Of a DNA stretch of 64,000 nucleotides, positions 1,630 through 21,858 are shown piece by piece. Numbering within the stretch: position 1 is the first letter of the stretch; the number at the start of each line of letters is the position of its first letter. The notes beneath the pieces were generated by a model. The model did no database searches, was not told the origin of the DNA, and saw only the letters and a program-made list of their open reading frames with translations. Position numbers and translations under genes: made by a program. This DNA comes from Sphyrna mokarran (Eukaryota), in NCBI GenBank assembly GCA_024679065.1, contig JAGIQG010000016.1, forward strand, positions 1,674,001 through 1,738,000, in the 5' to 3' direction.

Positions 1630-1998
1630 GCGTCCTTTCAACAGAAACTAACTGGACAATAAACCTGCCGGATTTAGTTACAGCACAGAATGGATTGTGT
1701 GCCCTGCTTCCATGTAACTACACTCTCTCAGAGACACTCAGCCCAATTCAGCTCCAAGCAGCTTGGTACAAGGATTATCAACAGTCCACTCAGGTGATGC
1801 TGTACCACAGCGACCAGAATTCCATACACCCGGATTACACAGCCCGATCTCAGCTCATCGGAAACTTATCCCAACTCCAGTGTTCTCTCCTTCTGAATAA
1901 CATCAGCAATGCGGATAATGGGACCTACCAGTTCATTATCAAACTCCTCGATCTGAACCAGACATACGAAAGCAAACCTCTCACCTTAATCACTTCAG
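1630..1998 (+). CDS. Gene A exon: Siglec-type V-set Ig domain
   Basis: ttctcag|G acceptor, G|gtaaac donor; NWTINLP..GLCALLPCNYT..AAWYK..ARSQLIGNLSQLQCSLLLNNI..DNGTYQFIIK shows the Siglec Cys pattern with no F-strand Cys. Confidence 0.92.
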
Positions 1999-2014
1999 GT
2001 AAACTTAATTTGCT

Positions 2015-2610
2015 CAGATGCAGAGTAAAACTCCCTCTACACTGTCCCCCCATCAAACACTCCAGACAGGTACAGCACGGGGTTAGATACAGAGTAAAGC
2101 TCCCTCTACACTGTCCCCCTATCAAACACTCCAGACAGGTACAGCACGGGGTTAGATACAGAGTAAAGCTCCCTCTACACTGTCCCCCATCAAACATTCC
2201 CAGGACAGGTTCAGCACGGGGTTAGATACAGAGTAAAACTCCCTCTACACTGTCCCCCATCAAACATTCCCAGGACAGGTACAGCACGGGGTTAGATACA
2301 GAGTAAAGCTCCCTCTACACTGTCCCCCATCAAACACTCCCAGGACAGGTACAGCACGGGGTTAGATACAGAGTAAAGCTCCCTCTACACTGTCCCCCAT
2401 CAAACACTCCCAGGACAGGTACAGCACGGGGTTAGATAGAGAGTAAAGCTCCCTCTACACTGTCCCCCCATAAAACACTCCCAGGACAGGTACAGCACGG
2501 GGTTAGATACAGAGTAAAGCTCCCTCTACACTGTCCCCATCAAACACTCCCAGGACAGGTACAGCACGGGGTTAGATACAGAGTAAAGCTCCCTCTACAC
2601 TGTCCCCCCC
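2015..2610. repeat. About 70-bp minisatellite (ggttagatacagagtaaagctccctctacactgtcccccatcaaacactcccaggacaggtacagcacgg)n
   Basis: Tandem units. Confidence 0.95.
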
Positions 2611-4380
2611 ATGGTTAGGGAGAGGTTAATTGAGTTACTGTGGTTTGGTTTTTTTTTTTGTTTGTTTTTGTGGTTGGTGTGTTTTTGTGTGGGGGGTGTT
2701 GTTGTGTTTTTGTGGGGGGGGGTTGGTTGGTTTTGGTTTGAAACTCCAGTGAAGTTCCAGATGAAAGTAACAACAGCAGTGACGCTTTTCCGTCTTCTTA
2801 CTTCCTCCCGGTGGGGGATCAAACACTGTGGTTGGGTTTCCTGGCTCCAGTACTTTTTTTTGGTTGTTGTGTTTGTGGTGTGTTGTTTTTTGTTGTTGTA
2901 GAGGGTGTTCCATTCACCCCTAAGTCCCCTCCTCTNNNNNNNNNNNNNNNNNNNNNNNNNNNNNNNNNNNNNNNNNNNNNNNNNNNNNNNNNNNNNNNNN
3001 NNNNNNNNNNNNNNNNNNNNNNNNNNNNNNNNNNNNNNNNNNNNNNNNNNNNNNNNNNNNNNNNNNNNNNNNNNNNNNNNNNNNNNNNNNNNNNNNNNNN
3101 NNNCTCTATCTCTGTCCNNNNNNNNNNNNNNNNNNNNNNNNNNNNNNNNNNNNNNNNNNNNNNNNNNNNNNNNNNNNNNNNNNNNNNNNNNNNNNNNNNN
3201 NNNNNNNNNNNNNNNNNNNNNNNNNNNNNNNNNNNNNNNNNNNNNNNNNNNNNNNNNNNNNNNNNNNNNNNNNNNNNNNNNNNNNNNNNNNNNNNNNTTG
3301 TTGGGGGGGTTTTGTGTGTTTGGGTTGTGGGGGGTGGGGGTGTTTGGGGTGGGTTTTTTGGGTTTGGTTTTTGTTTTTTTTGTTTTTTGGTCGCCAGGAT
3401 TTGCAGGTACCATGGGTTGGTGAGTTTCTAGAGTAACAGTCGCCTGTAAACTGTTGGGCCTTCACCTCCCTAGTTGTGAGTTTCCAAAGGATCAAGTGTT
3501 TTTAAATATTGCTACCTTGGTGGGTTGGTTGGGGGGGTGTGGTTGGTTTTTTTGGTGGGGTGTGGGTGGGGTGGGTTTTTTTGGTTTTTTTTTTTGTTCT
3601 AACTTCCCTCAAACAGGTTCCCATTTTTGTGTTGTTCTGCTAACTGTATGGCAATGGCAAATCACTCTCATAGGCAGTGGGGGGGGGGTTTTGGGGTGTG
3701 GGGTGTGGGGGGTGTGGGGTGTGGGGGTGGGGGGGTGTGGTGTTTTTTGGGGGTGGGGGGTGGGTGTGGGGTGGGGGGGTGTGGGTGTGGGGGTGGGGGT
3801 GTGGTGTGGGGGTGGGGGGTGGGGGGGGGGGGGGGGGGGGGTGGGGGGTGGGGTGGGGGGTGTGGGTGTGGGGGTGGGGGTGTGGGTGTGGGGGTGGGTG
3901 GGGGGTGTTGTGTGGGGGGTGGGGGGTGTGGGTGTGGGGGTGGGGGGGTGTGGGTTGTTTGGGGTGGGGGGTGTGGGTTTGTGGGTGGGGGGTGTGGGTT
4001 GTTTGGGGTGGGGGGTGGGTTTTGGGGGTGGGGGGTGTGGGTTGTTTGGGGGTGGTGGGGTGGTGGGTGTGGGGGTGGTTGTGTGTTTTGTGTTTTGGGG
4101 GGGGTTGTTGTGGTGGAAGGGTAGAAGAAGGTGATTGATACAGAGGGGGTGTGGGGGGTGGGGTGGTTGGTGGGGGGGGGGTGGTGTTTTGGGTTTTGTT
4201 TTTGTTTTTTGTGGTGGGTTGTTGTGTTTTGTGTGGGGTGGTTTGGTTGGGGTTTTTGTTTTGGGTTGGTGGGTTTTGTTGTTGGTGGTAAACTTCTTCC
4301 ACTAGACGTGACCCTACATCTGAAAGCTTGGACTGCCCATTTGTTGGTTGTGTTGGTGTGGTTGGGGGGGAGAGAGACAG
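2600..4380 (+). other. Corrupted G/T-rich duplicate of 5670-8760 with N gaps (probable assembly artefact)
   Basis: Collinear islands match 5670, 5900, 6145, 7330-7450, 7600-7690 and 8650-8690. Confidence 0.8.
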
Positions 4381-5676
4381 GTACAGCACGGGGTTAGATA
4401 CAGAGTAAAGCTCCCTCTACACTGTCCCCCATCAAACACTCCCAGGACAGGTACAGCACGGGTTAGATACAGAGTAAAGCTCCCTCTACACTGTCCCCAT
4501 CAAACACTCCCAGGACAGGTACAGCACGGGGTTAGATACAGAGTAAAGCTCCCTCTACACTGTCCCCCCATCAAACACTCCCAGGACAGGTACAGCACGG
4601 GGTTAGATACAGAGTAAAGCTCCCTCTACACTGTCCCCCATCAAACACTCCCAGGACAGGTACAGCACAGGGTTAGATACAGAGTAAAGCTCCCTCTACA
4701 CTGTCCCCCCATCAAACACTCCCAGGACAGGTACAGCACGGGGTTAGATACAGAGTAAAGCTCCCTTACACTGTCCCCATCAAACACTCCCAGGACAGGT
4801 ACAGCACGGGGTTAGATACAGAGTAAAGCTCCCTCTACACTGTCCCCATCAAACACTCCCAGGACAGGTACAGCACGGGGTTAGATACAGAGTAAAGCTC
4901 CCTCTACACTGTCCCCATCAAACACTCCCAGGACAGGTACAGCACGGGGTTAGATACAGAGTAAAGCTCCCTCTACACTGTCCCCCCATCAAACACTCCC
5001 AGGACAGGTACAGCACGGGGTTAGATACAGAGTAAAGCTCCCTCTACACTGTCCCCCATCAAACACTCCCAGGACAGGTACAGCACGGGGTTAGATACAG
5101 AGTAAAGCTCCCTCTACACTGTCCCCCATCAAACACTCCCAGGACAGGTACAGCACTAGATACAGAGTAAAGCTCCCTCTACAATCAAACACTCCCAGGA
5201 CAGGTACAGCACGGGTTAGATACAGAGTAAAGCTCCCTCTACACTGTCCCCCATCAAACACTCCCAGGACAGGTACAGCACGGGGTTAGATACAGAGTAA
5301 AGCTCCCTCTACACTGTCCCCCACATCAAACACTCCCAGGACAGGTACAGCACGGGGTTAGATACAGAGTAAAGCTCCCTCTACACTGTCCCCCCATCAA
5401 ACACTCCCAGGACAGGTACAGCACGGGGTTAGATACAGAGTAAAGCTCCCTCTACACTGTCCCCACATCAAACACTCCCAGGACAGGTACAGCATGGGGT
5501 TAGATACAGAGTAAAGCTCCCTCTACACTGTCCCCACATCAAACACTCCCAGGACAGGTACAGCACGGGGTTAGATACAGAGTAAAGCTCCCTCTACACT
5601 GTCCCCATCAAACACTCCCAGGACAGGTACAGAATGGGTAAGATACAGAGTAAAGCTCCCTCTACACTGTCCCCCC
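4376..5676. repeat. About 70-bp minisatellite array
   Basis: Tandem units as at 2015. Confidence 0.95.
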
Positions 5677-20574: not shown

Positions 20575-21035
20575 AGAACTGTACACAGTGCTCCGAGTGT
20601 GGGTCTAAACGAGGGATATGGAGACTGGAACTGTGCACGGTGCTCCGAGTGTGGGTCTAACCGAGGGATATGGAGACTGGAACTGTGCACAGTGCTCCGA
20701 GTGTGGGTCTAACCGAGGGATACGGAGACTGGAACTGTGCACGGTGCTCCGAGTGTGGGTCTAACCGAGGGATATGGAGACTGGAACTGTGCACAGAGCT
20801 CCAAGTGTGGGTCTAACCGAGGGATACGGAGACTGGAACTGTGCACAGTGCCCCGAGTGTGGGTCTAACCGAGGGATACGGAGACTGGAACTGTGCACAG
20901 TGCTCCGAGTGTGGGTCTAACCGAGGGATACGGAGACTGGAACTGTGCACGGTGCTCCGAGTGTGGGTCTAACCGAGGGATACGGAGACCGGAACTGTGC
21001 ACGGTGCTCCGAGTGTGGGTCTAACTGAGGGATAT
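20575..21035. repeat. 52-bp minisatellite (gggtctaaccgagggatacggagactggaactgtgcacagtgctccgagtgt)n
   Basis: Tandem units. Confidence 0.95.
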
Positions 21036-21121
21036 CACTTTGATTGGTGTTTGTTCTCTGCTCATGTTTTGCTGCATTGAAGATCCTGGTGATGAGTTTC
21101 TCCGTTTTAATCTCTTTCCAG

Positions 21122-21203
21122 GAGGGAGAAGCAATCGCCGATCGATGCTACAGAGATGCAGATGTTGACTGGACAGCGCACACCAGTGCGAGCACTCAGC
21201 TTG
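21122..21203 (+). CDS. Gene A exon: juxtamembrane cytoplasmic
   Basis: ctttccag|G..TTG|gtatga; REKQSPIDATEMQMLTGQRTPVRALSL; bridges phase 2 to phase 0. Confidence 0.75.
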
Positions 21204-21585
21204 GTATGAGCTTGGTATAATCTCTGTCTCATTCTCACTCACTGTCCAGTTTCTCCCATTTGAGAATGTCTGTACCTATCATTTAATCCATGTGGGAGAG
21301 GGTAGATCAGACTGAGGAACGAAAGAGCAAGGAATGAGTCCATTCAGCCCATCGATCCTACTCCTAACCTTTGCAAGATCAAGCTAATCAACCTCACTCA
21401 CTCATCCCTGTCCTGCACCCTGAATGGACTTCCCCTCACTCTTGATTTGACAAGACAGAATGAATGGGGCCTCCTCCTGTTCCTGTGTAACAGGCTCGAG
21501 GGACTGAATGGGGCCTCCTGCTGTGATCAGGGGAGCGTTGCTAGTTAATGTGTCTGGTGATGGATTCTGGCTCTTTCTGTTGCAG

Positions 21586-21858
21586 GTGGAGGCTGAGGGG
21601 GAGGCGGAGGCGGAGGCGGAGATGGAGGCTGAAACAGTGGAGGTGGACTCTCAGACGGAGGAGGTTGACTTTCAGATGGAGGAGGCCCAGCAGACGACAA
21701 GCCTGACGGTGCTGGAGAACGGGGAGGCCAGCCAGGAGGCAGGGGAGGAGGAGCTGGAGTTACATTATGCCTGCATCGACTTCTCAAGAGCTAACTGTTC
21801 GGACGGGATAGTGGGAAAGAGAGACAGCACCCAGTACGCCCAGATCAAACCGCAGTGA
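21586..21858 (+). CDS. Gene A terminal exon: acidic stretch + ITIM + ITSM-like motif
   Basis: ttgcag|GTG; VEAEGEAEAE..ELELHYACIDF..DSTQYAQIKPQ*. Confidence 0.9.
   Translation: MEAEGEAEAEAEMEAETVEVDSQTEEVDFQMEEAQQTTSLTVLENGEASQEAGEEELELHYACIDFSRANCSDGIVGKRDSTQYAQIKPQ

Follow-up and report, generated by a model that had tools for sequence, protein, structure and literature searches.

The Siglec-like gene described here belongs to a conserved elasmobranch lineage that lies outside the MAG clade, and its product lacks the arginine indispensable for binding sialic acid. Judged from its sequence, it is probably an inhibitory immune receptor with a ligand other than sialic acid and a predicted ability to recruit SHP-1/SHP-2. 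The sialic acid independence is proposed because the Arg is missing, and for the same reason the plain label "Siglec" overstates the shark protein. The gene was found in a window of 64,000 nt from Sphyrna mokarran (assembly GCA_024679065.1, contig JAGIQG010000016.1, positions 1,674,001–1,738,000 of the forward strand); all positions below are those of the window.

The gene consists of ten exons on the + strand, every one with an AG acceptor and the nine internal donors with GT. The joined exons give a single open frame that ends at a TGA stop codon. The encoded chain is that of a type I membrane protein and displays a V-set domain, six C2-type Ig domains, a membrane span and a tail with LHYACI…TQYAQI, and thus the V plus six C2 order of the initial annotation is borne out. 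Pfam matches are V-set (E = 6.9e-11) and Ig_CD22 (9.7e-7) for D1, C2-set_2 for D2 and D7, and Ig_3 for D3–D6. The D1 exon (1630–1998) encodes the three Siglec cysteines C23, C28 and C84, Trp8, and six of the 30 N-glycosylation sequons of the ectodomain. D2 (5765–6070) is a Siglec-type C2 domain whose extra Cys corresponds to MAG C165, the interdomain disulfide partner. It is followed by D3 (8473–8727), D4 (11233–11490), D5 (15666–15950), which is on the MAG/CD33-related side, D6 (17306–17584) and the membrane-proximal D7 (19324–19617). The transmembrane exon (20374–20479) has a hydrophobic span with no charged residue, i.e. without Lys or Arg, and a Cys-rich inner end. Orthologues have a signal peptide, however tblastn with the N-termini of three of them found no signal-peptide exon at positions 1–1700, thus the 5′ end of the gene is probably outside the window. 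The initial annotation had overlooked the missing signal-peptide exon as well as the isoleucine at the Arg position. Intron 1 contains at positions 2621–4380 (+ strand) a degraded, G/T-shifted copy of 5687–8739 with runs of N. In three aligned stretches 103 of 111 substitutions are to G or T; the copy is likely an assembly artefact outside the gene, and a second D2 exon at this location was rejected.

Orthologues are found in four named sharks: Mustelus asterias (P0001/P0002), Scyliorhinus canicula (P0003), Heptranchias perlo (P0004) and Pristiophorus japonicus (P0008). NCBI auto-annotates these as "myelin-associated glycoprotein-like" or "Schwann cell myelin protein-like"; these are machine labels and the proteins are uncharacterised. 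Domain order, membrane span and tail are the same, and one Pristiophorus model has a different C-terminus. The number of Ig domains in the models ranges from 5 to 7, the five-domain models being from Mustelus and a Pristiophorus-like form; the Mustelus models are without D3, or without D3 and D4. Identity to Mustelus is 94% in the transmembrane exon vs. 70% in D1.

The lineage forms a 100/100 clade on D1+D2, and the gene falls outside the MAG clades (100/99; 100/100) in each of the three trees in which its position is compared with that of MAG. The D1+D2 tree left out 8 of 61 proteins, which had no full D1+D2, the last-domain tree left out 11 of 61 with no passing last domain, and the concatenated tree comprises 37 proteins picked from the 61; some shark and fish proteins in the comparison were placed by similarity only. 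In the concatenated tree shark groups A and B join at 100/99 and, together with tetrapod CD33-related Siglecs, fall into a group (86/85) from which MAG is excluded; this group is not starred and includes teleost Siglec-like proteins too. A grouping of A, B and MAG is rejected (p-AU 0.020), the one rejection in four AU tests whose groups were picked after the trees were seen. The initial annotation had suggested an uncharacterised cartilaginous-fish lineage informative about the MAG/CD33-related ancestor. A lineage outside the MAG clades and distinct from CD22 is indeed present. An exclusive clade with tetrapod CD33-related Siglecs was neither recovered nor rejected, and members of the lineage already carry the automatic label "MAG-like".

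A tentative possibility is that the shark lineages are pro-orthologues of the tetrapod CD33-related Siglecs, a subfamily that would then date back to the first jawed vertebrates. As a statement on ancestry it does not conflict with an inhibitory receptor function. The 86/85 group is consistent with it, AU tests do not reject sharks plus tetrapod CD33-related Siglecs (p 0.116 and 0.10), and the spacing of the tail motifs equals that of newt and mammalian proteins. Gene conversion, Arg loss and a fast V domain, as described for primate CD33-related Siglecs in passages of PMC6288428, are evolutionary habits that seem to be matched in the sharks. However the two never form an exclusive clade in the free trees, where CD33-related Siglecs of mammals are represented by a single protein on a long branch, in a set without Siglec-1 and Siglec-15. 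As for exon sharing, two Mustelus paralogues have 97% identity in D6, and Heptranchias and another paralogue have 94%, vs. 45–78% between orthologues, and D7 groups partly by species group in the last-domain tree. Three Heptranchias proteins have an identical value for the length of the longest contig; all of these signs are indirect and at the protein level. The D6-sharing Mustelus paralogue is on a 46-kb contig and a mis-assembly is possible. Exon homogenisation together with recurrent Arg loss suggests that the shark cluster may evolve in the style of CD33-related Siglecs.

The codon at the position of the essential F-strand Arg is ATT (Ile102, positions 1935–1937, + strand). The assignment comes from alignment to the solved structures of sialoadhesin, MAG and Siglec-5, and also to R118 of rat MAG. 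The Mustelus V domain likewise has Ile, which rules out a sequencing or assembly error. Arg is missing in four of the six members of the lineage (Ile, Ile, Thr, Gln). Among 13 other shark V domains 12 have it, as do 16/16 MAG sequences and 7/7 tetrapod CD33-related-like rows. Arg-bearing orthologues are those of S. canicula and Heptranchias, and Pristiophorus has Thr. These states require three changes on the tree, and Arg appears to have been lost separately two or three times in this shark lineage. Full-length proteins without the Arg are also described in passages of PMC6288428, i.e. human Siglec-XII and great-ape Siglec-5 and -14; mutation of this residue leaves primate Siglecs unable to bind sialic acid, and recruitment of SHP-2 persists in Siglec-XII. 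Unlike these, the shark loss is of unrelated origin, is found in at least two species and involves three different residues.

The rest of the V domain retains Siglec features. MAG residues C37, C42, C100, C159, C165 and C217 all align to Cys, and the V-domain pair and V-to-D2 interdomain disulfides probably form. The AlphaFold model of D1 (pLDDT 89.8) has sialoadhesin as its best fold match (TM 0.86); by sequence and fold the domain resembles sialoadhesin and MAG more than CD33, and searches rank sialoadhesin first and MAG next. The protein might still be a functional lectin that binds sialylated glycans or gangliosides at a non-canonical site. This is unlikely, although the modelled Siglec V fold seems intact, among the aromatic residues that flank the pocket (A and G strands) Trp8 and Tyr49 correspond to MAG W22 and Y65 (Asn is at the W25 position and the Y127 position is in an alignment gap), a Lys is present two residues past Ile102, and a partly Arg-independent binding mode is described for Siglec-6 (PMC12953582). 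The S. canicula orthologue, which bears the Arg, has the same Lys and Mustelus has Gln, thus the Lys is not compensating for the lost Arg, and the replacements in the lineage are three different non-basic residues.

The best PDB match of D7 is mouse MAG Ig5 (E = 2.9e-7; 3.8e-14 for the same stretch with a family profile), and the cysteines of the extra MAG disulfide, C421–C430, are present in the alignment. The resemblance to MAG D5 reported in the initial annotation is thus confirmed, and the D7 strings it quoted are in the sequence. The domain is of a MAG-Ig5/Siglec-10 type. Of 61 proteins, 50 pass the test for it, among them 15/16 MAGs, 4/5 Siglecs of amphibians and one Siglec-10-like protein of a mammal; the profile derives from 11 domains of sharks and one of newt, which match it by construction. 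This type of domain is missing in 4/4 mammalian CD22. Since non-MAG Siglecs carry it, the four-cysteine last domain is not diagnostic of MAG. At the position of MAG N406, part of the Ig4–Ig5 dimer surface, there is Gln. The view that the gene is not a plain MAG orthologue holds up. D3 and D4 group with MAG D3 (91/83), and D6 groups with CD22-type C2 domains (97/76, not starred), in a C2 tree from which 18 of 91 rows (near-duplicates, redundant taxa, some fish) were thinned and whose bootstrap had not settled. D6 also scores 57/69 bits as a CD22-type C2 domain vs. 36–41.

Mammalian MAG adjoins CD22, and a CD22-like gene is adjacent here as well. The gene might on this basis be the shark counterpart of MAG, an axon-glia adhesion molecule in myelinating glia; the search ranking of D1 and the affinities of D3/D4 and D7 given above point the same way, and A plus MAG on D1+D2 alone is not rejected (p-AU 0.179). 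A canonical cartilaginous-fish MAG was not found among the 120 matches listed for a frog MAG query, nor in another search, neither of which demonstrates absence; the frog query is weak evidence for sharks because the word-index search matched only three named teleost MAGs. The counterpart reading is improbable. The gene is outside the MAG clade in three trees, its orthologues share just 29–68% identity in the V domain, unlike the conserved MAG, and I473, a residue of the MAG dimer surface, is matched by Ser in two alignments and by the adjacent Leu in another. In addition, MAG neurite signalling requires R118 (PMC5150538), which all of the MAGs retain.

The tail is encoded by a first cytoplasmic exon (21122–21203, 89% identity to Mustelus) and a last exon (21586–21858) with an acidic stretch, the ITIM-like LHYACI (21760–21777), the ITSM TQYAQI (21829–21846) and the stop codon; the motifs are where the initial annotation had read them. 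The pair occurs once in the six frames of the window vs. 0.06 times per shuffled window (100 base shuffles). The corresponding motifs of human CD33, quoted in that annotation, are LHYASL..TEYSEV, and the wider ITIM consensus accepts LHYACI. The terminal Ile causes LHYACI to miss the strict ITIM signature, which has L/V at this position (PMC7226832). The tail is conserved in 8/8 lineage-type proteins. MAG of Xenopus, coelacanth, paddlefish and bichir likewise has its tyrosines 23 residues apart, as do newt and mammalian Siglecs, and an ancestral status has already been published for the ITIMs of MAG in fish and coelacanth (PMC7226832). Given the spread of the last domain and of this spacing, a unique MAG/CD33 chimera was rejected, and the peculiar hybrid seen in the initial annotation is not supported. 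By sequence comparison the hybrid architecture itself is no novelty; the layout is common to frog MAG and Siglec-10-type receptors. A Siglec on its way out and almost without function, comparable to human Siglec-XII, is a very improbable reading: the Arg loss, the variable domain number and the position of V and D2 as the least conserved exons vs. Mustelus would suit it, but the frame is open through ten exons, Mustelus identity is 82–94% across the D5, D6, transmembrane and tail exons, and every Arg-less member retains both tyrosine motifs.

Among known systems, MAG/Siglec-4 of frog, coelacanth and ray-finned fish is like the shark protein in its V/D2 cysteines, four-cysteine last domain and a tail whose two tyrosines are separated by about 23 residues, with an ITIM in fish (PMC7226832). 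The shark protein differs in having seven domains (MAG has five), no Arg, a CD22-type D6 and Gln for N406. Newt "Siglec-10" (P0027) and a mammalian Siglec-10-like protein (P0182) display the same last-domain type (48 bits in P0182 vs. 5–12 for ordinary Ig domains) and an ITIM plus distal motif at identical spacing; unlike the shark protein they are five-domain proteins with the Arg retained, and their V domain is more distant. CD22/Siglec-2 shares the seven Ig domains.

In the preferred reading, that of an inhibitory receptor, the V domain would no longer bind sialic acid canonically. The heavily glycosylated seven-domain rod may present it to a ligand that is a protein or of microbial origin, or may signal on clustering; Src-family kinases would phosphorylate LHYACI and TQYAQI, on which SH2 phosphatases would dock, and expression would be on leukocytes. 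The MAG-like last domain and two-tyrosine tail are likely ancestral because they are common to shark paralogues, newt Siglecs, Siglec-10-like proteins and non-mammalian MAG. The gene may thus derive from a common stock of MAG and CD33-related Siglecs with a layout of V domain, C2 domains, four-cysteine last domain and two-tyrosine tail, a stock whose expansion in sharks would have produced several paralogous lineages next to CD22, with sharing of exons. A broader and rather doubtful proposal is that sharks have their own CD33-related-style inhibitory Siglec cluster beside CD22, with exon swapping, recurrent Arg loss and no separate canonical MAG. If true, the gene would come from an ancestor that preceded the MAG/CD33-related split, and the MAG of myelin would be a bony-vertebrate molecule, later than myelin itself.

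The gene is relevant to the timing of that split. Fish genomes have been stated to be without inhibitory CD33-related Siglecs (PMC7226832, where sharks are not mentioned), and shark databases hold several paralogous ITIM-bearing Siglec-like lineages under MAG, CD22 or Siglec-10 names. S. canicula vs. Sphyrna and Mustelus is a natural Arg-positive/Arg-negative pair for the role of a Siglec fold without sialic acid. A description of the gene or of shark Siglecs was not found in the literature searched; Bornhöfft 2018, Lehmann 2004 and Cao 2009 may cover cartilaginous fish. The available portions of PMC8455134, PMC9630641, PMC6557307, PMC8672417, PMC7916940 and PMC13324653 contain nothing on the gene or a shark MAG. 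Five supplementary texts of PMC13324653 name no shark, and its Siglec tree figure or species table may include them.

The adjacent gene is convergent with the Siglec-like gene and its 3′ part occupies positions 31751–64000 on the − strand. C2 exons are at 63803–64000 (cut by the window end), 60655–60942, 58807–59073, 55416–55682, 52343–52612 and 48851–49126, the transmembrane exon is at 47476–47563, and tail exons are at about 45450–45530, 43257–43402, 38848–38938 and 31751–31921, with exact splice sites that are not unique. The order of its tyrosine motifs is as in named bat, hare and marmot CD22, and this neighbour is likely CD22. The Siglec-like gene was rejected as the CD22 orthologue; it has a two-tyrosine tail and a four-cysteine last domain, and the multi-tyrosine CD22 tail is found in the neighbour.

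The Siglec-like gene at positions 1630–21858 (+ strand) is composed of ten exons with AG acceptors and GT donors, and the joined exon chain forms one open frame that ends with TGA. Each of the seven Ig exons is a multiple of three in length and in phase 1. Pfam assigns D1 to V-set/Ig_CD22, D2 and D7 to C2-set_2, and D3–D6 to Ig domains. The best solved relative of D7 is mouse MAG Ig5, and the match is much stronger when a family profile is used (E-value for the stretch = 3.8e-14). The LHYACI and TQYAQI tail pair occurs once in the window, versus 0.06 expected from shuffles. The gene is real and intact, and on these points the exon, domain and tail description of the initial annotation is correct within its scope. 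A signal-peptide exon was searched for upstream inside the window and was not found. A long acidic Glu/Ala-rich run (21586–21750) that differs in length between orthologues precedes the ITIM, and the cysteines grouped where the membrane span meets the cytoplasm are possible palmitoylation sites.

The F strand of D1 displays Ile at the position of the sialic-acid arginine when aligned to the solved sialoadhesin, MAG and Siglec-5 structures. This residue maps to R118 of rat MAG and its codon is ATT (1935–1937). Cysteines equivalent to MAG C37, C42, C100, C159, C165 and C217 are all present, and the predicted V domain (pLDDT 89.8) has sialoadhesin as its best fold match (TM 0.86). Because the Siglec cysteines and a predicted sialoadhesin-like fold are kept and the arginine is replaced by Ile, the product counts as a Siglec in its fold and ancestry, yet it lacks the defining binding residue. 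The Siglec identity previously proposed thus stands on the former grounds but not on the essential arginine, which had been overlooked. In a zebrafish study, this arginine is the criterion by which a protein qualifies as a functional Siglec candidate (bioRxiv 10.64898/2026.08.25.746757).

The V exon matches a “MAG-like” protein of Mustelus asterias at 70%. With that protein as query, seven-domain orthologues were found in Scyliorhinus canicula, Heptranchias and Pristiophorus, as well as many shark and ray paralogues. In a 53-row tree built from D1+D2, the gene groups with its orthologues and one further protein at 100/100. Within this clade, lineage A, Mustelus is nearest to the window gene, a placement that points to a carcharhiniform shark as the source of the window. 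The orthologues in other sharks carry the machine label “MAG-like”, and a search of the open-access literature found no paper on lineage A. The suggestion of an uncharacterised cartilaginous-fish lineage is thus borne out; the gene belongs to an uncharacterised elasmobranch Siglec-like lineage.

The arginine is missing in four of six lineage A V domains (Ile, Ile, Thr and Gln). Among the other shark V domains, 12 of 13 keep it, as do all 16 MAG sequences and 7/7 tetrapod CD33-related-like rows. This distribution needs three changes on the tree, with one divergent Rhincodon row left out. Since one fork on the tree is open, the number of losses is best given as two or three. Two other shark-type proteins have divergent V domains, i.e. 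P0009, with Tyr at the arginine position, and P0114, which is barely alignable; a bat (Pipistrellus) CD22 model, P0031, has Leu there. The interest of the gene lies in repeated arginine loss and in the shark cluster, rather than in a hybrid architecture.

That architecture, a MAG-like last domain joined to a CD33-type tail, had been regarded as special, a view that the wider comparison does not sustain. The four-cysteine last domain is present in 50 of 61 proteins tested: 22/25 shark proteins, 15/16 MAG, 4/5 amphibian Siglecs, 6/6 fish-like proteins, 1/3 fish CD22-like proteins, one tetrapod protein and one mammalian Siglec-10-like protein, and none of four mammalian CD22. Human Siglec-8 and Siglec-10 are the two best PDB matches of the Siglec-10-like protein, with almost equal scores, and the protein is clearly distinct from both. 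A spacing of 23 residues between the last two tail tyrosines recurs in 19 of the 47 tails compared, including all eight lineage-A-type proteins, newt Siglecs, the Siglec-10-like protein, and Xenopus, coelacanth, paddlefish and bichir MAG. Frog and rat MAG tails differ in having a third tyrosine in between; their proximal tyrosine likewise precedes the last by 23 residues (hand count), with a degenerate motif in rat. The accessible text of PMC7226832 describes ITIMs in fish and coelacanth MAG, held to be ancestral, and gives CD33-related Siglecs as absent from fish, with no mention there of sharks. The MAG-like last domain and two-tyrosine tail are likely the ancestral layout.

The D1+D2 tree has a MAG clade (100/99) and a clade of tetrapod CD33-related-like Siglecs (99/96), both separate from lineage A, with the deep forks open. 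In a concatenated D1, D2 and last-domain tree (37 rows), lineage A and a second shark lineage, B, unite at 100/99. The larger group around them (86/85) also contains tetrapod CD33-related proteins and some proteins of fish, but not MAG. AU tests, on groups picked after the trees were seen, gave p = 0.179 for A+MAG and 0.116 for A+CD33-related with D1+D2, and 0.020 for A+B+MAG and 0.10 for A+B+CD33-related with the concatenate. Because of that choice of groups, the position of A+B on the CD33-related side, away from MAG, is a lean rather than a result. Against it, D1 resembles sialoadhesin and MAG more closely than it does CD33, and D3/D4 cluster with MAG D3 (91/83). The trees put the gene outside the MAG clade and give this lean as to side. 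A canonical cartilaginous-fish MAG was not found with a frog MAG query: the 120 of 121 matches listed include MAG from tetrapods, coelacanth and ray-finned fish, and the sole cartilaginous-fish match among them is a 28%-identical paralogue. Absence of MAG from sharks is not shown by this weak evidence, since the search depends on shared words and recovered few teleost MAGs.

Another shark lineage, C (P0015, P0018, P0158, P0014), has five Ig domains and 626 residues in Carcharodon, which is the size of MAG. The arginine is kept in those of its members with a complete V domain, and the tail bears an ITIM/ITSM; the lineage did not group with MAG in the trees.

D6 (17306–17584) scores 57–69 bits on CD22-type profiles versus 36–41 on MAG and CD33-related profiles, a preference seen in all other tested shark proteins having the equivalent domain and opposite to that of D3–D5. 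In the C2 tree, D6 falls with the CD22-type domains (97/76, not starred; the bootstrap had not settled). Two Mustelus paralogues (P0002 of lineage A and P0014) share 97% identity in D6, and Heptranchias lineage A and a paralogue (P0004 and P0158) share 94%, versus 45%–78% among lineage A orthologues. D7 of Pristiophorus lineage A is 70%–72% identical to its own paralogues versus 50%–64% to orthologues. This likeness, read from protein models (one from a short contig), is reminiscent of gene conversion as reported among CD33-related Siglecs of primates (PMC6288428, in part); for D6 it suggests that exons were converted or shuffled within the shark cluster. In lineage B (P0005–P0007, P0013, P0016, P0017, P0019), up to five near-identical D5-type domains stand in tandem, which indicates that the exon was duplicated recently.

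With respect to function, primate Siglecs without the arginine fail to bind sialic acid, though Siglec-XII still recruits SHP-2 (PMC6288428, in part); by this analogy the V domain would probably no longer read sialic acid. Arginine-independent glycan binding exists, according to the available part of PMC12953582, which is a caveat to this prediction. Clustering by another ligand may give an inhibitory signal via SHP-1/SHP-2, as predicted because the membrane span is uncharged and the ITIM-like and ITSM tail motifs are conserved. LHYACI matches the wide ITIM consensus only. Expression would be in leukocytes, from family habit. The position of I473, a dimer residue of MAG (PMC5150538, in part), aligns ambiguously.

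MAG adjoins CD22 in mammals. The 3′ part of a convergent CD22-like gene is at 31751–64000 (− strand), with its V exon beyond the window; it ends at about 31751, 9.9 kb from the stop codon of the Siglec-like gene. This part comprises six C2 exons, one membrane exon and four tail exons, for which 48 splice variants give an in-frame join. The neighbor is very likely CD22, because its tyrosine-motif order is that of named bat, hare and marmot CD22. The tail has seven tyrosine motifs, one beyond the named mammalian order (an extra TVYSVV exon near 45450–45530). Positions 2621–4380 are a degraded, G/T-shifted copy of 5687–8739 (D2 exon, intron and part of D3) with N runs, where 103 of 111 substitutions are to G or T; this is most likely an assembly artefact, apparently from a faulty read that polishing carried into the assembly. 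Two retroelement remnants were recognised by eye: a fragment of a LINE-type reverse transcriptase at 51290–52138 (− strand) inside a CD22 intron, and a broken element between the two genes at about 26000–27600 (+ strand). The introns are full of several minisatellite families with units of about 30–60 bp, which yield long spurious open reading frames (stretches at 690–1460, 2020–2600, 8760–10500, 11600–14100, 28150–30520, 52700–54700 and 59300–60340).
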